The notes beneath the pieces were generated by a model that was given only the letters and a program-made list of their open reading frames with translations, was not told the DNA's origin and did not search any database. Both the position numbers and the translations under genes were made by a program. A stretch of 64,000 nt of DNA from a virus (taxonomy: Duplodnaviria > Caudoviricetes): positions 1 through 64,000 of IMG/VR virus record IMGVR_UViG_3300029288_000113. One strand, written 5' to 3'. This document shows, in pieces, positions 11,247 through 22,564 of this stretch (position 1 is the first letter of the stretch; each line of letters begins with the position of its first letter).

Positions 11247-11311
11247 ACCCATCGTCAGGCACCGGCATGCACCGGCGCTACCCCGTGCACCTCCGGGCCG
11301 GGGTTTCGGGT
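11247..11311 (-). ncRNA. Hammerhead ribozyme HH1 (type II)
   Basis: ACCC GAAA CCCCG..CGGGG UA|GCGCCGG..CCGGUGC CUGACGA U GGGU. Confidence 0.8.
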
Positions 11312-11314
11312 TAT

Positions 11315-11644
11315 CTAATGGAAATGAGAAGGCGGACCCGGTGCAAGGCTGACAGAATTGAAGATTCGGTTCAGCTCATCCACTACCTCATCTCGGCTGT
11401 CCATGGTGAACGAATTGAGGAATCCCTCGGTGGAGCCCGAACCCTCAGCCAGGCAACGGGCGGAGAATTTGACCACCCCAATCCATTTCTTGCCGATGAC
11501 CTCTTTGGTGACAGCGGCGATGATTATGATCTGGGATTCGGCTTCCTTGGCGTTGTATGCCAGGGTCTGCTTCCAGATGATCTTATATCCCAGTTCCTTT
11601 AAGTCTGATTCAAGATGTTCGGGCATTTTTTTTTGCCCCTCCAT
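11315..11644 (-). CDS. Hypothetical protein
   Basis: ORF ends 3 nt before HH1. Confidence 0.5.
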   Translation of the reverse strand: MEGQKKMPEHLESDLKELGYKIIWKQTLAYNAKEAESQIIIIAAVTKEVIGKKWIGVVKFSARCLAEGSGSTEGFLNSFTMDSRDEVVDELNRIFNSVSLAPGPPSHFH

Positions 11645-11645
11645 T

Positions 11646-11804
11646 TTATTTGAACAACCCTCTCAGTATGCGGCTGGTGACCTTGCCAGCCATCCGCCTG
11701 ATGATCCGCCTGCCCGTGGCCTCGGGCCCCTGGGACACCGCCTTGGCGTCACCCAGGAGCCTGGCTGTGAGGTACAGCAGTGACCTGATCTTGTTGATGG
11801 TCAT
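11646..11804 (-). CDS. Small basic amphipathic protein (52 aa)
   Basis: MTINKIRSLLYLTARLLGDAKAVSQGPEATGRRIIRRMAGKVTSRILRGLFK; ATGA overlap; below the track size cut-off. Confidence 0.6.
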   Translation of the reverse strand: MTINKIRSLLYLTARLLGDAKAVSQGPEATGRRIIRRMAGKVTSRILRGLFK

Positions 11805-12370
11805 TTCATCATCCTCTTGGTGATCTCAGCCTGCTCCTTGTACAGCTCTTCGCCGAGCAGGCCCTTGATCCTGGACAACTCCTTGTCCGTGTGTGCCACG
11901 CCGGAGTTGAGGTCCAGGTACCACTGCAGGACATCGGCCCTGGTGGGTAGGTCGGCCACGTTGAACGACAGGCTGTTGCGGAAGTCCCTGAGGGCCAGCT
12001 CATGGTCCGGGTATTCCATCAGGGTCCGGCCGAACACGGCAATGTTGTTCCTGAGCATCTTCAGCAGGGCGGTGATCCGTTGGAGGCCGTCCACCAGGAC
12101 CATCCTGCGCTCCCCGTGGAACCTGCGGGACATCCAGAACGGGGCATTGAAATAGACCTCCCTGCCCGAGGTGCCACCACGTAGGAAGTATTCGCAGTAT
12201 GCCATCTGTTGGGCCTCGGACCAGACATGGCCACGCTGGAAATCGGGATTGAGCTCAAGGCCGTATTCCCTGATCCACTTGTCAACCATCCACCCAAGGC
12301 TGTCCAGGGGCACGTCGCAGCGGTACTGGGCCTCGGTGAACCTGGGGATTTCCCTGATCGAGTTATACAT
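11801..12370 (-). CDS. DUF262 (GmrS/ParB-like) domain protein
   Basis: NPDFQRGHVW and VDGLQRITA motifs. Confidence 0.8.
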   Translation of the reverse strand: MYNSIREIPRFTEAQYRCDVPLDSLGWMVDKWIREYGLELNPDFQRGHVWSEAQQMAYCEYFLRGGTSGREVYFNAPFWMSRRFHGERRMVLVDGLQRITALLKMLRNNIAVFGRTLMEYPDHELALRDFRNSLSFNVADLPTRADVLQWYLDLNSGVAHTDKELSRIKGLLGEELYKEQAEITKRMMK

Positions 12371-13901
12371 TTTTGGACTCCTTCTTGGCGAATCCCTCGG
12401 GCAGGAAATATAGCTCCTGCTTGGCCCGGGTGTAGGCCACGTAGATCAGGTTCATCTCCTGGGACTTCTGCCAGGCCTTGCGGGCCCATGGGCTGGGCAT
12501 GTACTTGTCCCGACCCAGGATGAACACCCGGGGCCACTCCAGGCCCTTGGCCTTGTGGACCGTGCTCAGGGTGAGCAGGCCCTTGTTGTTGTCTGTGAAC
12601 AGGGTCTGGATGGACCTGATGAGCCCGTCGATGGTCCGCTCGTCCTCGGGCAGGTGGCCAATGATGGTCCGGAGTGTGGTGACCTTGTCGTCCACCTGCT
12701 GGGCCCGGTCCTCCTTGCCCTTGCTGGTCAGCTTGGCAATCTCGCGGCCGGCATAGGCATCCAGACGCTCCTCCAGGTGGTCGATGTCCCTGGCCTTCAT
12801 CTGCTTGATCAGGGTTTCCAACCCGACGCCGATGTCACGGCCCAGGATGCGGCAGGCCACCCGGCGCCTGATCAGGTCGTAGGCGGTCTCAACCAGGGGT
12901 GCGGTCACCCGGCAGAGGATGGCATCGGTGTTGGTGAACTGTGTGGGATCGAACCCACCAAGGCTTTCGACCACACCGAACGGGGCATGCTCATGGGCTT
13001 CAATGATGGGTACGAATTCCTTGGCAGCCTGGACCACGTTCTGCGGGCAGCGGTAGCTGACGGACAGCGGCAGTACATGGCAGTCGAACTCATTGGCGAT
13101 GCGGCTCATGGCCTCGGAGTCTGCACCCCTGAACCCGTAGATGGCCTGGTAGGGGTCACCCACTGCGATCAACCGCCCGCCTGGCTTCAGCATCCGCTTC
13201 AGCAGGGCGATCTGGACCCCGTTGGTGTCCTGGGCCTCATCGACGAACACATAATCGTACTGCCTGAACCGTAGGTCCTTGATTAGAGGCATGTACAGCA
13301 TGTCATCAAAATCGATGACATATTCGGCATCCTCTATGGATTTTTGCAGGATCATCTTGGCCAGTTCGATGCCGCGCTCCTCGGTGACCTCCTTGCTGCC
13401 CCGGCCGGACCGATCGGTGTTGAGGCTGACATCAAAATGGTCGATGAGCTCGTGCCAGGATTCCCCCGTGTCCGGGATCAGGTATCCCATGCCGAACCCC
13501 TTGGCCAGGCCCACCAGTTTCATGACGAATCCCATGTAATCCTTCAGGTCACCCTCTGCAATCCATTCCCGACAGAGGTCTCGGACCTTGTTGGCCTCAA
13601 CCCTGATCTTGTGGTCGCGGTTGGCATTCATCCAGGCACCGAACCCGGTCGAGTGGAAGGTGGCGGCCTTGACATTGTCCATCCTGAGCCTTTTCAGGAT
13701 TTCGTCCAGATGGGTGGCGATGGCCTTGTTGAAGGCCAGGAACAATACGAACTTGTCCTTGCTGATGAACTTGAGTGATTCCACAATGGTGGTGGTCTTG
13801 CCGCTGCCGGCCACCGCCTCGATGATTCCGCTTTCGGTCCCCGCCCGGACAAAATCAAATATGTCCTGCTGGTAGGGGGATGGCTTGAATTCTGTGCTCA
13901 T
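12363..13901 (-). CDS. SF1 UvrD/Rep-like helicase
   Basis: AVAGSGKTT, VDEAQD, VGDPYQAIYGFRGA, TVHKAKGLE, YVAYTRA; start MSTEF (the longer track start lies inside HH2). Confidence 0.9.
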   Translation of the reverse strand: MSTEFKPSPYQQDIFDFVRAGTESGIIEAVAGSGKTTTIVESLKFISKDKFVLFLAFNKAIATHLDEILKRLRMDNVKAATFHSTGFGAWMNANRDHKIRVEANKVRDLCREWIAEGDLKDYMGFVMKLVGLAKGFGMGYLIPDTGESWHELIDHFDVSLNTDRSGRGSKEVTEERGIELAKMILQKSIEDAEYVIDFDDMLYMPLIKDLRFRQYDYVFVDEAQDTNGVQIALLKRMLKPGGRLIAVGDPYQAIYGFRGADSEAMSRIANEFDCHVLPLSVSYRCPQNVVQAAKEFVPIIEAHEHAPFGVVESLGGFDPTQFTNTDAILCRVTAPLVETAYDLIRRRVACRILGRDIGVGLETLIKQMKARDIDHLEERLDAYAGREIAKLTSKGKEDRAQQVDDKVTTLRTIIGHLPEDERTIDGLIRSIQTLFTDNNKGLLTLSTVHKAKGLEWPRVFILGRDKYMPSPWARKAWQKSQEMNLIYVAYTRAKQELYFLPEGFAKKESKNV

Positions 13902-13935
13902 CTTGACCTCTCCTTTGATTAAGGTTTCTTTGGCT

Positions 13936-13993
13936 CCTGCTATGGCCCCAGGCCGGGGCCATTTCACGGCTGCCACACCGATCATCGGGCAGG
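13936..13993 (-). ncRNA. Hammerhead ribozyme HH2 (type I, CCGAUGA core variant)
   Basis: CCUGC CCGAUGA U CGG..CCG U GAAA UGGCCCC..GGGGCCA UA|GCAGG. Confidence 0.65.
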
Positions 13994-14305
13994 CTATTTT
14001 CCTGACAGGAATCTGGCCTCACCGGCCTTGAGGGACCTGTGTGAGACGTTATTGTAGTCATATTTCTTGAATGTGAGCTTGATCCTGTTGGCATCCATAT
14101 CGAAGGTCATGTCGTACCGGTCCCTCATGTCCTGATCATTGCTGAGCAAGTCAAATACCGGCCCCAGGTTCCAGCGGTTGTCATTGGCTGCGATGCTGAT
14201 GCCGTTTTCTTCTGGAATTTCCTTGATGAATTTCACGGTGTCCTTCATTAACATGTGCATCCTGGCCCCTACAAAACTTCTCTTATCCATTTTTGTGTCC
14301 TCCAT
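13994..14305 (-). CDS. Hypothetical protein
   Basis: ORF between HH3 and HH2; the real start may be the second Met (MDKRS). Confidence 0.55.
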   Translation of the reverse strand: MEDTKMDKRSFVGARMHMLMKDTVKFIKEIPEENGISIAANDNRWNLGPVFDLLSNDQDMRDRYDMTFDMDANRIKLTFKKYDYNNVSHRSLKAGEARFLSGK

Positions 14306-14321
14306 CTAATGTATTGGTTTT

Positions 14322-14382
14322 CTGTGATCGGGACACGAGGCCCCGGTTTCGGTCGGTCACCAGCCGACCATCATCAGGCAGG
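14322..14382 (-). ncRNA. Hammerhead ribozyme HH3 (type I, possibly degenerate)
   Basis: CCUGC CUGAUGA U GGUCGG..CCGACC GAAA CCGGG..CCCGA UC|ACAG; two C.A mismatches next to the cleavage site. Confidence 0.6.
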
Positions 14383-14583
14383 TTCGGAGTTTCTTTTGCA
14401 TTCAGGGCATCGTCCACTGTATCTGTTGTTGCTACTCAAGATGCCATCGCTGGCACTGCATAGGATTCCGTGCGGGCAGTTATGGTTTACCATATGCTTG
14501 TTGTTCCCAAATTTGAACCTGACTGCCACGACCCTGCCACAGTGATGGCAGATTTTCTTGCGTCTTACTGGGCAGGTGGTCAT
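14374..14583 (-). CDS. Small Cys-rich (Zn-binding) protein
   Basis: CHHC, HNCPHG, CPEC; its TGA stop is part of the HH3 core. Confidence 0.55.
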   Translation of the reverse strand: MTTCPVRRKKICHHCGRVVAVRFKFGNNKHMVNHNCPHGILCSASDGILSSNNRYSGRCPECKRNSEPA

Positions 14584-14897
14584 TGCTTATGCTCCAACAT
14601 TTTATTGCACTTGTCAACACATTCTTGGAGCCTGGACTCCCAGATTTTCATGCTGTTGTGGATATGGGTGGTCCAGCTAGATGAATTGGATACAGTGCTG
14701 CCGAGTCTGACCCCGCCGGCCCTGCCCACAAAGTAAAACTGGCCGATCAGACCCTTGACCGTGAATTGCCGGTATCTGGTTCTGGACTTGATCTCGACTG
14801 CTTGCTTCACTTCCACCAGGTAGCGCACCACCCGGTCGGTCATGGTCTTGGGTTGACCCTTCCTGGGGCCTGACTTGAAAACTTGGTAGCTGCTCAT
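14580..14897 (-). CDS. Hypothetical protein
   Basis: AAGGAG RBS then MSSYQVFKSGPRKGQPKT. Confidence 0.6.
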   Translation of the reverse strand: MSSYQVFKSGPRKGQPKTMTDRVVRYLVEVKQAVEIKSRTRYRQFTVKGLIGQFYFVGRAGGVRLGSTVSNSSSWTTHIHNSMKIWESRLQECVDKCNKMLEHKQ

Positions 14898-14924
14898 GAC
14901 CAGTCTCCTTTTTTTTATTGTCTG

Positions 14925-14988
14925 ACCCTCGTCAGGCATCGGTATTCACCGGTGCTTCCCCGTGCACCTCCGGGTCGGGGATTCGGGC
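14925..14988 (-). ncRNA. Hammerhead ribozyme HH4 (type II, U15.1-A16.1 variant)
   Basis: GCCC GAAU CCCCG..CGGGG AA|GCACCGGU..ACCGAUGC CUGACGA GGGU; paralog of HH1. Confidence 0.7.
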
Positions 14989-14991
14989 TGG

Positions 14992-15198
14992 TTAGCTCAG
15001 GTAGTTTTTACATTCCTGGCAACTGCATTTTATGGCATACTTGGCGGCTCGCTTGGCTTCTGTTATGGTGTCGAATCCCATGACGTGGGTTGGGACCAAT
15101 GGGTCGCTGTCGAATCGCCACCCATAGTTAAGGGTGACTATGACCTCATTGCCTATGCTGCGTTCGTCATCAAGATGCATGATTTTCTTGCTCATCAC
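14992..15198 (-). CDS. Hypothetical protein (C-terminal CxCxxC)
   Basis: Operon-packed; stop lies just before HH4. Confidence 0.55.
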   Translation of the reverse strand: MMSKKIMHLDDERSIGNEVIVTLNYGWRFDSDPLVPTHVMGFDTITEAKRAAKYAIKCSCQECKNYLS

Positions 15199-15470
15199 CC
15201 CCTCCCATACAGCTTGGCCATCTCGTTCTTGATCTGGTCCACCTCGGCCTGTGCCCTGTTCAATTTCTGATCCAACATCATCATCTTCTCCGCCCTGGGC
15301 AGCATGTCCTCGATGACCGTCATGCCGTATTCCAGGTACAGCTTGGCAATCTGCCCCTTGCCGCCCACATCCTTGATGGCCGGGTGGAAGGTGTAGACCG
15401 TCTGGATGATGTTGTGCTCCTTTTGGGGAATCTTCCTGCCGATCAGGTCTTCAAATTCCTGTGGGGTCAT
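15195..15470 (-). CDS. Hypothetical protein
   Basis: RBS; C-terminal coiled coil. Confidence 0.6.
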   Translation of the reverse strand: MTPQEFEDLIGRKIPQKEHNIIQTVYTFHPAIKDVGGKGQIAKLYLEYGMTVIEDMLPRAEKMMMLDQKLNRAQAEVDQIKNEMAKLYGRG

Positions 15471-15481
15471 TTTCTTGCTCC

Positions 15482-15853
15482 TTATAATATGGCCTTGGCC
15501 AATGCCTTGACATCGACCGGGTCGTTGGCCAGCTCCTTTTCCAGTTCGACAATCTGGGTGTTGAGCCTGACTTGCTCGGCATGGACCTTGGCGAGTTCCT
15601 GCCTCAGTTGCGCCAGCCTGTGGCTCTTTTCCCCGTGCAGCCTGGTGGCCTTGTTGGCCTCGCTCTCGATGTAGTACACCGAGTAGCCCATGCCCCGGCA
15701 GCCCCGGCTGTACTTGCTTGCCGGTTCGTCCACGACCACCGCCTTGTTGCCCTTGGCCCGCTCGGCCCTGGCCCGTTCCTTCATCTCTTCCTTGTCATGG
15801 GAATAGGCACCGGTGAAGACATATCCCTTGGATTCCGCCTGTCTCTTGTTCAT
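15482..15853 (-). CDS. Hypothetical protein
   Basis: RBS; coiled coil. Confidence 0.6.
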   Translation of the reverse strand: MNKRQAESKGYVFTGAYSHDKEEMKERARAERAKGNKAVVVDEPASKYSRGCRGMGYSVYYIESEANKATRLHGEKSHRLAQLRQELAKVHAEQVRLNTQIVELEKELANDPVDVKALAKAIL

Positions 15854-15881
15854 TGTTGTTCCCCTTTCATCTAATTTGATT

Positions 15882-16394
15882 TTATTTTAATTCCAGGCCG
15901 AAATTGGCCAGGAAGGCCGGTTCTGGGTCAATACCCCAGCACTTGCGACATAGATCATTGTGGTTGACCTTGCCCGTGACCTTGGTGAAATGGGTCGACC
16001 TGTTGCTGACGTAGTCCCAGCAGGCCGATCCGTCTGTCCTGTGGCAGTGGTGGATCTTGCTGCCGGTGGGCGTTTTGCCGGCAAACTCACCATTCTTCAT
16101 GATGACCAGCCTGGAGTACAATTCTCTTGCAGTCCGGTCACCCTTGATGGCGGCCAGGACCATCCTGCCGATGGCCTCCGGGCTTGAGTCCCTGATACCC
16201 GACCAGTCGTAGCCTTGTGGGGGCACGCCGGGATAGCCATCCTGCAGGGCCCAGATTTTCTTGAAGACCCTGGGGTTGTCCAGGGCCTTCTTGATCACCA
16301 TCAGGTCCAGGATGCCACAGCAGGTGATGTCCAGTTCCTCATCCTGCCATTCGAAATGGCCCTCTTTTTCATTGTATCTGAGGTTCTTCATCAC
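15882..16394 (-). CDS. Hypothetical protein
   Basis: YDWSGIRDSS motif; C-terminal H..C..CRKC; follows HH5. Confidence 0.6.
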   Translation of the reverse strand: MMKNLRYNEKEGHFEWQDEELDITCCGILDLMVIKKALDNPRVFKKIWALQDGYPGVPPQGYDWSGIRDSSPEAIGRMVLAAIKGDRTARELYSRLVIMKNGEFAGKTPTGSKIHHCHRTDGSACWDYVSNRSTHFTKVTGKVNHNDLCRKCWGIDPEPAFLANFGLELK

Positions 16395-16419
16395 TTTTTC
16401 CTTTATCTATATTTGATTT

Positions 16420-16479
16420 CCTGCGAGCCCCGAAGACTGGGGCTTTCGGTTGGGCATCACCCAACCATCATCAGGCAGG
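16420..16479 (-). ncRNA. Hammerhead ribozyme HH5 (type I, canonical core)
   Basis: CCUGC CUGAUGA U GGUUGGG UGAUG CCCAACC GAAA GCCCC..GGGGC UC|GCAGG. Confidence 0.9.
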
Positions 16480-16492
16480 TCTTGGTATTGGG

Positions 16493-16642
16493 TTAAAACT
16501 TCTCTTTATTATTCACGATAAGTTGGATGAGAATATTTCTTAGCACCAACTTTAGTTCGTCACTTATGACGTTATTGATAATTTGTTTCGTCAGAAAATT
16601 GTAGTCTTTGTCGTCGAGCTTAATTACGTATTCTTTTTTCAT
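16493..16642 (-). CDS. Small AT-rich hypothetical protein (49 aa)
   Basis: MKKEYVIKLDDKDYNFLTKQ...; AAGGA RBS. Confidence 0.5.
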   Translation of the reverse strand: MKKEYVIKLDDKDYNFLTKQIINNVISDELKLVLRNILIQLIVNNKEKF

Positions 16643-16665
16643 GTTATGATCCTTATGTGTTTTCC

Positions 16666-16827
16666 TTAATGATTTTTTTTGAAATCTTCCAGGGCCTCGT
16701 CCAGGGTTTCATATTCGTCTTTGCAACCGACCGCCTCCTCCTCATATAGGAAGTCGACTTCCTGGTTATCTTCTTCACTTATTATTTCCATGAGGATTAC
16801 ATGAATTTGATATTTAATTTGAGGCAT
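16666..16827 (-). CDS. Small acidic protein (53 aa)
   Basis: MPQIKYQ...EEDNQEVDFLYEEE...DEYETLDEALEDF. Confidence 0.55.
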   Translation of the reverse strand: MPQIKYQIHVILMEIISEEDNQEVDFLYEEEAVGCKDEYETLDEALEDFKKNH

Positions 16828-16852
16828 CTTGCTACTCCCTTGTTTTGGATTT

Positions 16853-16912
16853 GGCTTCATCAGACCGGCCATCCAGCCGGTGAGGCAAGGTGGTTGGCCT
16901 TGCCTTTCTGCT
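16853..16912 (-). ncRNA. Hammerhead ribozyme HH6 (type II, minimal stem II)
   Basis: GC A GAAA GGCAAGG..CCUUGCC UC|ACCGGC UGGAUG GCCGGU CUGAUGA A GCC. Confidence 0.75.
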
Positions 16913-16914
16913 TG

Positions 16915-17490
16915 TTAGACATTCACGAAATACTGGCCGGCGTCGTTTTTGGAGATGGTCACTTTTTTGTCCTTGGCCAGTCTGTTAGGCAATTGAGCAT
17001 TGATCGTGGCCTTCATTGCCTTTTCATCCCGATCCGGAAAGGCTTGTTTCAGCTCGGCCAGGATTTCGGCTTTGCTGTGCGGACCGGATTTGATGATCTC
17101 CAGGATGGTAGAGATGACCCCAGGGGATTTGGTATTCTTGGCCAGGGTTGCTTTCTTAACGGTCGGTGCCGGCAAAGCCAACAAGGGGCTCAGGTCATTC
17201 AACACTTTGTTGATTAACGGAGCCTTATGTAAATAGGCATCCCGAAGGGACCAGACTTTGCGGCCGTTGCGAAAGGCATGCAGGTAACAATGAGAACCGC
17301 CCGGGTGCTGGTGGCGGTAGATAACCTTGATGTCCCGGAAAGAACCGGGGATATCGAAGGTGGATAAAGTGGGCTCGTAAGCCTTATTTTTCAAAGTGGC
17401 GTTATCGAAATCCCAGTTAATTTGCGGTAAAGCGTTGGTCAGGTTTTCACGGCGCTTTTGGCTTATGCTCGGCTCGATCTTGGTTTCCAT
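16915..17490 (-). CDS. Hypothetical protein with C-terminal winged-helix-like domain
   Basis: PGVISTILEII...KAEILAELKQAFPDR; lies between HH7 and HH6. Confidence 0.6.
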   Translation of the reverse strand: METKIEPSISQKRRENLTNALPQINWDFDNATLKNKAYEPTLSTFDIPGSFRDIKVIYRHQHPGGSHCYLHAFRNGRKVWSLRDAYLHKAPLINKVLNDLSPLLALPAPTVKKATLAKNTKSPGVISTILEIIKSGPHSKAEILAELKQAFPDRDEKAMKATINAQLPNRLAKDKKVTISKNDAGQYFVNV

Positions 17491-17520
17491 CTTCGTTCTC
17501 CTTTTATCTAATTTTTGGCT

Positions 17521-17577
17521 CCTGCTTTCCCGGTCGCTGCCGGGAATTCATCGGTGCCACCCGAATCGTCAGGCAGG
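17521..17577 (-). ncRNA. Hammerhead ribozyme HH7 (type I, U15.1-A16.1 variant)
   Basis: CCUGC CUGACGA U UCGG GUGGCA CCGA U GAAU UCCCGG..CCGGGA AA|GCAGG. Confidence 0.75.
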
Positions 17578-17579
17578 GG

Positions 17580-17888
17580 TTAGCACATGAGGTCATAGCC
17601 GGTATCGCCTGGCTTTGGATACCAGTGCCCGTCATGCTCATTGGGTGCCGTTGCCAATTCGACCATTTCGACCTTGCTCAGCTTGGTGCAGCCGAAGCCA
17701 CAGAGGCCGGAACTGAACCCCACGGGGACATAGGTGAAATATTGGTCGTCATTCTCCAGGGTTTCGACGGTCTTGACCTTCACCTTGACACAATATTCGA
17801 CTGTCTGATTGACCTTGTGCCAATCCCGGGCGAAGGTGGCCTTGCCTTTTTCTGTCATTCCGTAGATGGTATTGATCTTGAGTCCCAT
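17580..17888 (-). CDS. Hypothetical protein
   Basis: ORF with RBS; stop lies just before HH7. Confidence 0.55.
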   Translation of the reverse strand: MGLKINTIYGMTEKGKATFARDWHKVNQTVEYCVKVKVKTVETLENDDQYFTYVPVGFSSGLCGFGCTKLSKVEMVELATAPNEHDGHWYPKPGDTGYDLMC

Positions 17889-17906
17889 TTTTTTTGCCCC
17901 TTTTAT

Positions 17907-18242
17907 CTATATTTGATTTCCTGCTGCCATCTGCCTTATCCAGCGGCGGTAGGCTCCGATGGTCTTGAACCCTGCCTGCTTGGCATCTGCCTTCATTTCC
18001 TTGCTGAACCCGCAGATGTTTGGGTTGTGGGATCGGTTGGTTATGTACCAGTGTCCCCGGCAGTCATCCCAGGTCAGCTCTTTGAATAATACGATGTGGT
18101 GGAACCGGCCTGATTCCGAGATAAAAGATTGTTGGAAGTCGATGACCATCCAGCGGCGGCAATGGATGCACTGGACTGCCTCCCTGTAGCCGCCCCATTC
18201 CTTGTCTTCATCCGGGAACAGGTTGACCTTTGGCCTTGCCAT
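17907..18242 (-). CDS. Hypothetical protein
   Basis: AAGGAG RBS; CIHC motif. Confidence 0.55.
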   Translation of the reverse strand: MARPKVNLFPDEDKEWGGYREAVQCIHCRRWMVIDFQQSFISESGRFHHIVLFKELTWDDCRGHWYITNRSHNPNICGFSKEMKADAKQAGFKTIGAYRRWIRQMAAGNQI

Positions 18243-18272
18243 CTCTAGCTCCTTCGTTGAGGTATTTTGGCT

Positions 18273-18346
18273 TCCTAAGACGTTGCCTGCTCCTCTGGGC
18301 AGGCAGTGGGTTTCGGCCGGGAGCCACCCGGCCTGGTCACTTAGGA
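18273..18346 (-). ncRNA. Hammerhead ribozyme HH8 (type I, G3-C8 swapped core)
   Basis: UCCUAA GUGACCA GGCCGGG UGGCU CCCGGCC GAAAC..UGCCUGC..GCAGGCA..GUC|UUAGGA. Confidence 0.7.
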
Positions 18347-18607
18347 GAAGATTTTGACCTTAAATTTGTTGATTTTCTCTTTGAAGGTGATGTGGTTGAA
18401 GTGGATGGCCTCCAGGTAAAGCCACCCGTGCTTTACAACCACTGGGGCGTCTGAAGGAACTGTCCAGTTATGTTGGGCTATGCTGCGGGTGATTGCTAAG
18501 GGAAGGTGATGATGGAGCTTAAGGGCCTCAGTCTTGCAGGCATTGATGATTTGGTTGATATCAGTCATTAACTCCAACCCAGGGACGGTAATTTCTTTGT
18601 ATTCCAT
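18341..18607 (-). CDS. Hypothetical protein (first sizeable ORF of the early operon)
   Basis: AAGGAG RBS; its TAA stop forms part of HH8 stem I. Confidence 0.55.
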   Translation of the reverse strand: MEYKEITVPGLELMTDINQIINACKTEALKLHHHLPLAITRSIAQHNWTVPSDAPVVVKHGWLYLEAIHFNHITFKEKINKFKVKIFS

Positions 18608-18631
18608 GACCTTTCTCCTTTATCTAATTTT

Positions 18632-18790
18632 GGCTTCATCGGTTGGCCCTTCCAGGCCAAGACTGGGAATGAGTGCTATTCAGGTTTCTGGCCCGGTGTC
18701 CGTGTTTTCCGGTCGCCACCTGCTTAGGCCGGGTACTCGCCACTTCGGCCCCGCCACCGTTTCGCTTGTGTCTCATTCCCAGTTTCTGCT
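18632..18790 (-). ncRNA. Hammerhead ribozyme HH9 (type II, CCGAUGA core, ~98-nt insert in loop III)
   Basis: GC A GAAA CUGGGAAUGAG..(18674-18771)..CUCAUUCCCAG UC|UUGGCC UGGAAG GGCCAA CCGAUGA A GCC. Confidence 0.65.
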
Positions 18791-19252
18791 CGTTCCTTCT
18801 GTCATGGATTCGCCTCCCGGCCCGGGCAACTCCCCTGCCTGGTGGGTCCGATTCGTTTCTGGCCTATCGGGAAACCTTCAATGGCTTATTGGTTGATGTG
18901 GACTGCCTTGCCCTGACCTTTCCGGTGGTCTTCCTACCTGCGGTCTCCCCCAGGTTGGCCTCCCGGTTGCGCTTACTACCCGGTGCGCCAATTTTTGGTT
19001 TTGGCCTTATGCCTTCGCCCCTGGAAGGGCTTGCCCCGCCGGCCTCTAAAAAGGTCCCCGGTCTTGGACTCTGGCTGCCTTATGCTCCGGCCTGCTAAAT
19101 AATGTACCCTGGGTTAGCGGTGCTGCCGATGGGGGGCTATCTGCTACTTTGGATTATCGGGTGTCTGGCCTGCTCGTCCCGTCCCGCCCTTTATGTCCGG
19201 CCGCCTTGGCCCTCGCTCCATCCAACCTCCTTAATCCTTATTCTTACTTATT

Positions 19253-19280
19253 ATTATAATTATTATTTTGGGGAAGTCAA
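19253..19280 (-). promoter_or_regulatory. Sigma70-type early promoter TTGACT-N16-TATAAT
   Basis: Near-consensus boxes in an AT-rich intergenic tract heading the leftward operon. Confidence 0.7.
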
Positions 19281-22083: not shown

Positions 22084-22160
22084 GACCCCATGACCCAATT
22101 GGATAGGGTTCCCGAATCCTAGTCGGGGAGTTGCAGGTTCGAGTCCTGCTGGGGTCACCA
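22084..22160 (+). tRNA. tRNA-Arg(CCT)
   Basis: GACCCCA/TGGGGTC acceptor stem, ACCC/GGGT D stem with A20, CCCGA-ATCCTAG-TCGGG anticodon arm, GTTCGAGT T loop, encoded CCA. Confidence 0.9.
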
Positions 22161-22487: not shown

Positions 22488-22564
22488 CGGGCCTTGGCGC
22501 AGCCAGGCAGCGCACGTGCTTTGGGAGCACGGGGTCCGGGGTTCAAATCCCCGAGGCCCGACCA
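22488..22564 (+). tRNA. tRNA-Pro(TGG)
   Basis: CGGGCCT/AGGCCCG acceptor stem, CGTGC-TTTGGGA-GCACG anticodon arm, GTTCAAAT, encoded CCA. Confidence 0.92.

Follow-up and report, generated by a model that had tools for sequence, protein, structure and literature searches.

Nine hammerhead architectures (E1–E9) lie on the minus strand, in the gene junctions and leader of one phage operon, within the window analysed here, a stretch of 64,000 nucleotides (Table 1). The nine elements span approximately 7.5 kb, and the complete virus genome is 97 kb. An earlier sequence-only reading had claimed nine minus-strand hammerheads, five of type I and four of type II. Re-derivation reproduced its nine low-end coordinates, with a sole shift in E3 (14321 versus 14322), and gave the same assignment: E2, E3, E5, E7, and E8 are type I, and E1, E4, E6, and E9 are type II.

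Table 1 Coordinates and properties of the hammerhead elements and other features of the operon
Feature	Position	Strand	Character and detection	Core and residue 17	Loop-tail pseudoknot
Promoter	19253..19280	-	sigma-70-type, operon head; TTGACT, 16-nt spacer, TATAAT
Leader RNA	18662..19246	-	~586 nt; predicted release by E9 cleavage
Conserved block	18994-18959	-	36 nt in leader; 97% identical to L285 9489-9524
E9	18632..18789	-	type II, in leader; long-range descriptor	CCGAUGA (U4C), GAAA, GUC site; C17 at 18661
E8	18273..18346	-	type I; R1 30.1 bits (E 1.2e-6)	GUGACCA (G3...C8 swapped); C17 at 18279	loop II UGGCU + AGCCA at 18272-18268
E7	17521..17577	-	type I; R1 31.1 bits (E 6e-7)	U15.1-A16.1, U10.1-U11.1 mismatch; A17 at 17526	UGGC + GCCA at 17519-17516
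E6	16853..16911	-	type II, canonical core; R2 22.8 bits (E 2e-4)	CUGAUGA, GAAA, CUC site; C17 at 16882	loop I UGGAU + tail AUCCA at 16850-16846 (5 bp)
E5	16420..16479	-	type I, fully canonical; strict descriptor, R1 69.4 bits (E 3e-18)	C17 at 16425	UGAU + AUCA at 16417-16414
E4	14925..14988	-	type II; relaxed descriptor, R2 53.7 bits (E 3e-14)	U15.1-A16.1; A17 at 14956
E3	14321..14382	-	type I, canonical core; R1 55.3 bits (E 4e-14, mismatches flagged)	C17 at 14326	UGGU + ACCA at 14318-14315
E2	13936..13993	-	type I, precedes helicase gene; R1 30.3 bits (E 1e-6)	CCGAUGA (U4C), U10.1-U11.1 mismatch; A17 at 13941	UGGC + GCCA at 13934-13931
E1	11247..11311	-	canonical type II; strict descriptor, R2 59.9 bits (E 3e-16)	GUA site; A17 at 11279

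The three-helix junction, in permuted topology, is present in all nine elements, and H17 is C or A in each of them. The weak spots are stem II of E6 and E9 (2 bp) and stem I of E3 (3 bp). The MFE fold of E5, with stems of 5, 7–8, and 6 bp, is the three-way junction. Stems I, II, and III of E1 are 7–8, 4, and 6 bp, and its paralogue E4 has one C-A mismatch in stem I; E3 also has one C-A mismatch, in stem III. Stems III and I of E6 are 8 and 7 bp. A 12-bp base of stem III surrounds a 95-nt insert in E9, whose stem I hairpin is 6–7 bp, and AGCAGAAA and GAUGAAGCCAAA are common to E9 and E6.

The placement of the elements also agreed with the earlier reading, according to which eight begin within about 15 nt of a stop codon and all end shortly before the next ribosome-binding site (RBS). 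The measured distances to the stop codon are -9 to +13 nt, E9 in the operon leader being the exception, and the re-measured stop-to-RBS geometry holds. Two stop codons fall within the ribozyme architecture: the UAA of the upstream gene lies in stem I of E8, and the UGA in the core of E3 is the stop codon of its upstream gene.

Detection of the elements

Two covariance models, R1 (type I) and R2 (type II), were built solely from other viral contigs; the seed of R2 was a two-sequence type II alignment. Together they recover eight of the nine elements at 22.8–69.4 bits against a background of at most 13.3 bits, which is the next best match of R1 on both strands of the 64 kb (the background of R2 is 13.0 bits). 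E9, which R2 does not report, passes only the long-range descriptor; the same descriptor gives two chance-grade matches in 5.86 Mb of other viral DNA. E6 is the sole match of its quality, known hammerheads aside, in 5.86 Mb. The strict canonical descriptor retrieves E5 and E1 only from both strands of the whole 97-kb genome, and nothing from 524 kb of loci around helicase relatives, which, with identities of 51% or less, are a null set and not a comparative set. The opposite strand had been named as a control in the sequence-only reading, and in the 97-kb genome neither the descriptors nor the external covariance models found anything comparable on that strand or away from the operon.

A further check, with Rfam and relaxed descriptors, gave a divided outcome. 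The descriptors locate the elements (the relaxed one finds E4, for example, and the long-range one E9), whereas the Rfam 15 hammerhead models pick up none of them; gathering and E-value thresholds were applied to the whole window and to slices of 8.8 and 1.2 kb, and the genome was also searched family by family. Canonical external members of the subfamily escape these models too, and we therefore take the silence to reflect a gap in sensitivity and not to count against membership; the phage subfamily as a whole goes unseen by the Rfam 15 hammerhead models. A weak RF02276 match near 77.3 kb falls in apparent protein-coding sequence and looks like chance.

The pattern GCAGAAA...CYGAUGAAGCC has 116 matches in viral contigs, none of them with hammerhead architecture, and thus E6 and E9 are without an external homologue of that form. 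A search of genome contigs for the type I subfamily returned only two matches, both in MAGs of gut Clostridia, which we rejected as a clue to the host.

Core variants, covariation, and a pseudoknot

The cores were scored against the consensus C3 U4 G5 A6 N7 G8 A9, G12 A13 A14, A15.1-U16.1, and H17. This consensus is complete in E1, E3, E5, and E6 and altered in the five others, by U4C (E2 and E9), U15.1-A16.1 (E4 and E7), or G3-C8 (E8). The five deviating cores, which the sequence-only reading missed, are expected to slow cleavage.

Several of the deviations are matched by pair-preserving swaps between orthologues. The orthologue of E7 in the related contig L285 has the canonical A15.1-U16.1, and conversely the positional orthologue of E1 in L149 carries U15.1-A16.1. 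C3...G8 is retained in the orthologue of E8 in L285, and the two differ by covarying changes in the inner helix of stem III. Covariation in stems I–III is also seen in orthologue and paralogue swaps; the homologue of E4 in L149/L153 has a nearly identical stem III (one loop base differs), whereas stems I and II differ yet still pair. In the external type I family, 94% of the cells are paired; sliding the partners lowers this to 20–48%. Both sides have changed in 11 pairs. The two-sided swaps at 15.1/16.1 and 3/8 in related phages point to selection on the fold.

In all five type I elements, loop II can pair with the 3′ tail over 4 bp or more to form a pseudoknot, another feature missed in the sequence-only reading. 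In a register-free permutation test, loop II pairs with its own tail over 3.9 bp and with the tails of other members over 2.9 bp, and none of 20,000 permutations reached the observed value. This pseudoknot explains the conserved AGCCAAA tail. A tertiary contact was also sought in E1, E4, and E9, and none was convincing.

Promoter, leader, and predicted products

All nine elements are co-oriented with one strong promoter, as had been claimed, and our promoter scan agrees: the site matches 11 of 12 consensus positions and is the best in 9–21.5 kb. The same hexamer pair precedes a similar leader in the sister phage (L285), in which the 36-nt block of the leader is also conserved. A scan of the operon found no terminator-like sites on the minus strand, and these consensus scans suggest that a single transcript runs across the operon.

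The leader length given in Table 1 assumes that transcription starts near 19246. No convincing ORF was found in the leader, the only candidate being a 46-aa frame with nothing RBS-like upstream. The idea that the leader is a large structured RNA was also rejected, as shuffled sequences fold equally well (z 0.05).

The predicted cleavage sites fall 31–59 nt ahead of the next start codon, in a regular geometry. Cleavage at all of them would give ten pieces. The first is the leader (~586 nt), the last is a distal remainder from 11278, and the eight between them are mRNAs with one to four cistrons each. No phage-encoded RtcB ligase was found.

Discussion

The nine elements very likely represent two phage subfamilies of self-cleaving hammerhead ribozymes, carried in one long transcript of the host RNA polymerase, and the array probably chops this transcript into the ten predicted pieces. 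The sequence-only reading had proposed that a polycistron is cut in this way; the structure, placement, co-orientation, and products of one to four cistrons have been computed here, and the processing itself is what we infer for the present phage. Two further proposals of that reading, a separate tuning of mRNA stability and a function like that of RNase III on T7 early RNA, went unsupported.

Transcription by the host RNA polymerase would start at the promoter (19280–19253), and the three-way junction would fold as the polymerase passes each stop-to-RBS gap. The type I fold may be stabilised by the pseudoknot of loop II with the bases just past stem I, and the E6 fold by the pseudoknot that its loop I forms with the tail. 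Each RNA would then cut itself 3′ of position 17, leaving a 2′,3′-cyclic phosphate upstream and a 5′-OH downstream. For type I elements, the upstream mRNA would keep nearly the whole ribozyme as a structured cap at its 3′ end; in the downstream mRNA, which would begin 31–40 nt ahead of the start codon, the 5′ UTR would be short, A-rich, and probably mostly free of structure. For type II elements, the upstream piece would end in stem III and the downstream piece would start with the stem I hairpin, each serving as a cap. Consequences for mRNA stability and translation would be expected: the likely benefit is that each block obtains a standard 5′ UTR and ends that are defined and resist nucleases, independently of its neighbours and of host RNases. 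The five variant cores would probably react more slowly, resulting in graded processing.

The elements might instead be non-cleaving structured RNA signals, such as protein-binding, RNase entry, or pause sites, that merely resemble hammerheads. The absence of an Rfam match to any element would fit this explanation, but E1, E3, E5, and E6 possess a complete consensus core in the correct topology, two permuted topologies share one core, and the core is conserved while the stems covary, which is the signature of a catalytic fold. We regard such signals as highly improbable. It is less far-fetched, but still unlikely, that the array is partly decayed, such that only E1, E5, E6, and perhaps E3 cleave and the variants and weak-stem copies are relic intergenic hairpins. 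The U4C change of E2 is a singleton, U4 being retained in all three homologues, and two G-to-A changes relative to E5 break stem I of E3. Among mutants of the CUGA turn, the C3G+G8C swap rescues activity, and all others tested showed low activity (PMC9901934). Since U4C sits in this turn, E2 and E9 may cleave poorly or not at all. A G3-C8 variant was reported to be less active with its natural C17 than with G17 (PMC3884650), and E8, the G3-C8 element, has C17. Some predicted variants were also inactive in the study of Perreault et al. 2011 (PMC3088659). On the other hand, the deviations at 15.1/16.1 and 3/8 are two-sided, with pairing kept between orthologues; the stems of the variants are intact, and the type I variants E2, E7, and E8 keep a pseudoknot of at least 4 bp. 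Type II elements with U15.1-A16.1 recur in another phage, and natural U15.1-A16.1 variants do cleave (PMC3088659).

A further explanation, which overlaps with self-cleavage of the transcript and which we consider possible though somewhat unlikely, is that ribozyme and standard leader form a portable boundary module that insulates the translation of each gene cassette from upstream sequence and, the modules being alike, acts as a site at which unrelated small genes move between phages by homologous recombination. E7 and its orthologue in L285 are 81% identical over approximately 97 nt, including the tail and the RBS leader, while the flanking genes are dissimilar on both sides, and the same holds for E8. 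Within the genome, stem I, tail, and leader are near-identical among paralogues, and the cleavage-to-start distances are uniform. Mosaicism at gene boundaries is, however, general in phages and needs no ribozyme, and the comparison comprises two junction pairs, with no breakpoint or recombination intermediate mapped inside a ribozyme. An extended form of this idea, distinctly doubtful in our judgement, combines the portable module (insulation and swapping of early genes) with graded core variants and with ribozyme 5′ halves that overlap upstream stop codons; these would set different, translation-sensitive cleavage rates and would amount to a built-in programme for relative mRNA levels.

We retain the reading of an array of self-cleaving ribozymes. 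What hammerheads do biologically in bacteria and phages is still described as largely elusive (PMC6765202). With one promoter, nine ribozymes, and two topologies, the operon is a compact test bed for asking whether ribozyme arrays take the place of processing by RNases and whether this is tuned by core variants, and its natural core variants (G3-C8, U15.1-A16.1, and U4C) have orthologues of standard form in a sister phage.

Comparison with known systems

Phage ribozyme arrays have been known since 2011, and the operon is a large, good example of this known arrangement, not a new one. The sequence-only reading called the density unusual, which is overstated; the related contig L153 holds six hammerheads in approximately 4.8 kb. 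Clustered prophage hammerheads were described in Agrobacterium tumefaciens, Azorhizobium caulinodans, and Clostridium scindens (Perreault et al. 2011, PMC3088659). The three clusters cleave polycistronic constructs of approximately 2 kb in vitro, one of them also in vivo in E. coli, and it was proposed that long phage transcripts are cut into gene- or operon-length mRNAs (PMC3088659). Pseudoknots, a 2-bp stem II, and U10.1-U11.1 and U15.1-A16.1 variants are documented there in active ribozymes (PMC3088659). The present array resembles those clusters in these contacts, short stems, and variants, and in having several co-oriented hammerheads of mixed type between phage genes, flanking single genes or short blocks. 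It differs in that nine elements lie in approximately 7.5 kb, compared with the assayed triples, and in that the virus genome is complete (97 kb) and both promoter and leader are defined. Stem III of one ribozyme here has a 95-nt insert, two cores carry U4C, and one core has G3-C8, where that study reports U3-A8.

The three-way junction, core, and permuted topologies are shared with Rfam RF00163 and RF02276, whereas the phage subfamily is marked by an inserted U that follows A9, by a fixed stem I (CCUGC/GCAGG), and by the loop II-tail pseudoknot. A purely functional analogy may be drawn with the early polycistronic transcript of T7, in which RNase III cuts intercistronic structures to give separate stable mRNAs with hairpin ends. 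Here too, one early transcript would be cut at structured intercistronic sites. The T7 transcript is cut by a host protein enzyme that leaves 5′-phosphate and 3′-OH ends, whereas the present RNA is predicted to cut itself, leaving 5′-OH and 2′,3′-cyclic phosphate ends. RiboJ, a synthetic hammerhead insulator derived from a satellite RNA ribozyme and used singly upstream of an RBS, strips variable upstream RNA and thereby gives the downstream gene a standard 5′ UTR. The phage elements likewise place a hammerhead ahead of an RBS, but they are natural, occur here in nine copies, and would have insulation as a putative function.

Identification of the elements

The nine minus-strand hammerhead elements (type I, E2, E3, E5, E7, and E8; type II, E1, E4, E6, and E9) probably form a working ribozyme array, and self-cleavage of one long transcript appears to be the best explanation of their sequences; our confidence that all nine are active is lower. 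The low coordinates proposed in an earlier sequence-only reading were reproduced, except that E3 ended at 14321 instead of 14322. The Infernal/Rfam and relaxed-descriptor check suggested there succeeded in part: Rfam 15 gave no hammerhead match (whether at gathering thresholds, on 8.8-kb and 1.2-kb slices with E values allowed up to 10, or in per-family genome searches), whereas our descriptors and the models built from external sequences recovered elements. Our strict descriptor matched only E5 and E1 on both strands of the 97-kb genome and nothing over 524 kb of related-helicase loci; relaxing the core added long-stem matches at E7, E4, and E2. A descriptor ignoring stem II picked out E6 and E1 in the phage genome and, in 5.86 Mb of other viral DNA, only chance-grade matches save the hammerheads of L149/L153, a contig related to the window phage. 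In the phage genome, a descriptor allowing long-range pairing found E9 (12-bp and 7-bp helices) and E6; it required, in order, GAA, a helix of ≥8 bp with a span of ≤220 nt, H17, a hairpin of ≥5 bp, and CYGANGA. It gave two chance-grade matches in 5.86 Mb of other viral DNA.

External type I sequences were retrieved from other viral contigs with a 15-mer and a structured pattern derived from E5. Seven external sequences aligned cleanly, with 94% of cells paired compared to 20–48% when the partners were slid, and 11 pairs were altered on both sides. A covariance model built from these seven alone (R1), run on the window with filters off, scored E5 at 69.4, E3 at 55.3, E7 at 31.1, E2 at 30.3, and E8 at 30.1 bits (E from 3e-18 to 1e-6). 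A similar motif density on the opposite strand, named in the sequence-only reading as a reason for doubt, was not observed, the next-best R1 match on either strand of the window being 13.3 bits. A second model (R2), built from two external type II sequences, scored E1 at 59.9, E4 at 53.7, and E6 at 22.8 bits over a background of 13.0. One of the two, an E4-like element of L149/L153, has a stem III hairpin almost identical to that of E4 (one loop base different, U15.1-A16.1 included), and its stems I and II diverge in sequence from those of E4 yet pair. E9 is invisible to R2 because of a 95-nt insert inside its stem III. Neither model found additional elements over the remaining genome outside the window.

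Coordinates of the elements and associated features
Feature	Location	Position	Strand	Remark
Sigma-70-type promoter	window	19280-19253	minus	TTGACT-16-nt spacer-TATAAT; 11/12 consensus positions; top site in 9-21.5 kb
36-nt leader block	window	18994-18959	minus	97% identity to L285 9489-9524
E7	window	from 17577	minus	relaxed-core descriptor
E5	window	16479-16420	minus	canonical, strict descriptor
E4	window	from 14988	minus	relaxed-core descriptor
E2	window	from 13993	minus	relaxed-core descriptor
E1	window	11311-11247	minus	canonical, strict descriptor
Alternative core hairpin, E1	window	11262-11246	minus	
Alternative core hairpin, E4	window	14939-14924	minus	
Alternative core hairpin, homologue	L149	~1105-1089		
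GGAGGUG loop, E1	window	11296-11284		
GGAGGUG loop, E4	window	14973-14961		
(A)AAUUAGAUAAAGGAG-type leaders	window	15885-15865, 17907-17889		examples
tRNA genes	window	22084-22157, 22488-22561	plus	
Type I family member	L149	2502-2432	minus	56 bits with R1
Type I family member	L285	11317-11379		29.8 bits
tmRNA gene	L149	8458-8810	plus	full-length; 132.7 bits

Operon and predicted processing

The source record is a complete IMG/VR virus genome of 97,417 bp, of which the window is the first 64 kb, and its minus-strand ORFs from ~21 kb down to ~0.3 kb form a near-continuous gene block (longest-ORF call). The strong promoter of the sequence-only reading was confirmed and is co-oriented with all the elements. 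From this promoter to 9 kb, terminator-like sites were confined to the plus strand, where 15 were found, a count about as in shuffles. The ~650-nt leader contains no convincing ORF (the sole frame, of 46 aa, has no RBS-like sequence upstream). Most of the genes that follow are small ORFans for which neither Pfam nor PHROG gave a match. Next come genes for a UvrD-type helicase, a GmrSD_N-domain protein, and a sigma-factor-like protein, and this content would fit a region for early functions or host takeover. Immediately past the divergent end of this region are two tRNA genes.

The leader block of 36 nt (GCGCACCGGGUAGUAAGCGCAACCGGGAGG with flanks) is far more similar to its counterpart in the sister phage L285 than are the proteins of the two phages (just 41–78% identity). 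Its closing stem appears to covary (UUGGC/GCCAA in the window phage, UGAC/GUCA in L285), and elsewhere in IMG/VR the block is confined to the sister phage's contigs. One possible role is that of a leader signal of the protein-binding or antitermination type. Separately, (A)AAUUAGAUAAAGGAG or a close variant is repeated ahead of many start codons, in the RBS leaders of most operon genes, ribozyme-free junctions included, and seems to serve this phage as its standard region for translation initiation.

The gene-junction placement noted in the sequence-only reading proved regular. E9 occupies the operon leader and has no preceding gene. For the other eight, the distance from the last base of the preceding stop codon to the start of the element is −9 to +13 nt; this codon falls within stem I in E8 and is the core UGA in E3. 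The predicted cuts, 3' of position 17, lie 31–59 nt ahead of the next start (31–40 nt for type I and 54–59 nt for type II). One long transcript would self-cleave at the array into a 586-nt leader, fragments of 382, 753, 644, 457, 1469, 630, 385, and 2662 nt, and the remainder, with predicted mRNAs of one to four cistrons apiece. The topology would set which product retains structure: a type I cut would leave the ribozyme body on the 3' end of the upstream product, and a type II cut would leave a hairpin on each of the two new ends. The array may affect stability or insulate translation. Most ribozymes would have their 5' portion covered by ribosomes terminating on the preceding gene, and thus cleavage may compete with upstream translation.

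Pseudoknot and core variants

In the type I family, the stem II loop is complementary to the bases immediately 3' of stem I, a pseudoknot that the sequence-only reading had overlooked. The loop II/tail pairs are CGACU/AGUCG, UGACU/AGUCA, and UUGGU/ACCAA in external sequences, and UGAU/AUCA (E5), UGGU/ACCA (E3), UGGC/GCCA (E7 and E2), and UGGCU/AGCCA (E8) in the window. Among 17 type I members, loop II forms on average 3.9 Watson-Crick bp with its own tail versus 2.9 with the tails of other members; the observed own-tail value was reached in 0 of 20,000 permutations. The pseudoknot accounts for the conservation of the AGCCAAA tail. It matches that of the hammerheads described by Perreault et al., in which it is needed for fast cleavage (PMC3088659). 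E6 has a type II equivalent, in which loop I (UGGAU) is paired to a downstream AUCCA.

The cores of E1, E3, E5, and E6 are canonical. E4 and E7 have U15.1-A16.1, natural variants of which cleave, but more slowly (PMC3088659). Canonical A15.1-U16.1 is present in the L285 orthologue of E7, and U-A in the L149 element that is orthologous to E1 by position; the pair has therefore been swapped on both sides between orthologues. The E8 core, GUGACCA, corresponds to G3...C8. Its L285 orthologue reads CUGAAUGA, corresponding to C3...G8 plus an additional base, and the stem III inner helix covaries between the two. In comprehensive pairwise mutagenesis, the C-to-G plus G-to-C swap alone among double mutants of the CUGA turn restored activity, the remaining mutants displaying low activity (PMC9901934). 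A G3-C8 variant was reported to have lower activity with the natural C17 than with G17 (PMC3884650), and E8 has C17. The U10.1-U11.1 mismatch (E2 and E7) and the 2-bp stem II (E6 and E9) have published active precedents (PMC3088659). E2 and E9, both of which carry U4C (U4 is kept by all three E2 homologues), are the most doubtful catalysts of the array.

Other family members were also observed. A type I family member of L149 (2502-2432) has GGA for GAA at positions 12–14 and G at position 17, retains perfect stems and the pseudoknot, and may be a natural G17 variant. A type I family member of L285 (11317-11379) has a short purine-rich stretch in place of the stem II hairpin (CUGACGC AAAGGGGC GGAAC); this may represent a decayed copy or a form with a reduced stem II. 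The core CUGAC/CUGAU of E1, E4, and the L149 homologue is able to pair with GUCAG/AUCAG a few bases 3', the C/U change having a G/A counterpart; such an alternative hairpin, missing in the L153 IId element, would sequester the core, perhaps after cleavage. Shine-Dalgarno-like GGAGG/GAGG runs are present in stem III loops of several type II elements (GGAGGUG in E1, E4, and L149 IIc; UGGAGG in L149 IIb; GAGGGU in L153 IId).

Comparison with related phages and known hammerhead clusters

L285 (G001), a complete 96.8-kb phage, resembles the window phage in its promoter type and in a long leader containing the shared 36-nt block. It carries only three hammerheads, of type I; the R2 search, which covers the E1/E4 class only, found no type II match. 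The L285 orthologues of E7 and E8 are flanked by genes unrelated to those in the window, and thus the ribozymes sit at mosaic junctions. L153 contains six hammerheads of mixed types in ~4.8 kb, a density equal to that of the window operon, which had been considered unusual. The tmRNA gene of L149, a 53-kb viral contig, either belongs to the phage or marks an ssrA integration site at which the contig includes host sequence.

Hammerhead clusters that flank phage genes were reported in 2011, together with the idea of polycistronic RNA processing, and were tested there in part (PMC3088659); a 2019 review still described the function as largely elusive (PMC6765202). In view of the 2011 precedent, the window array is a further example of a known arrangement and not a new kind: a clean, large phage hammerhead cluster with instructive natural core variants.
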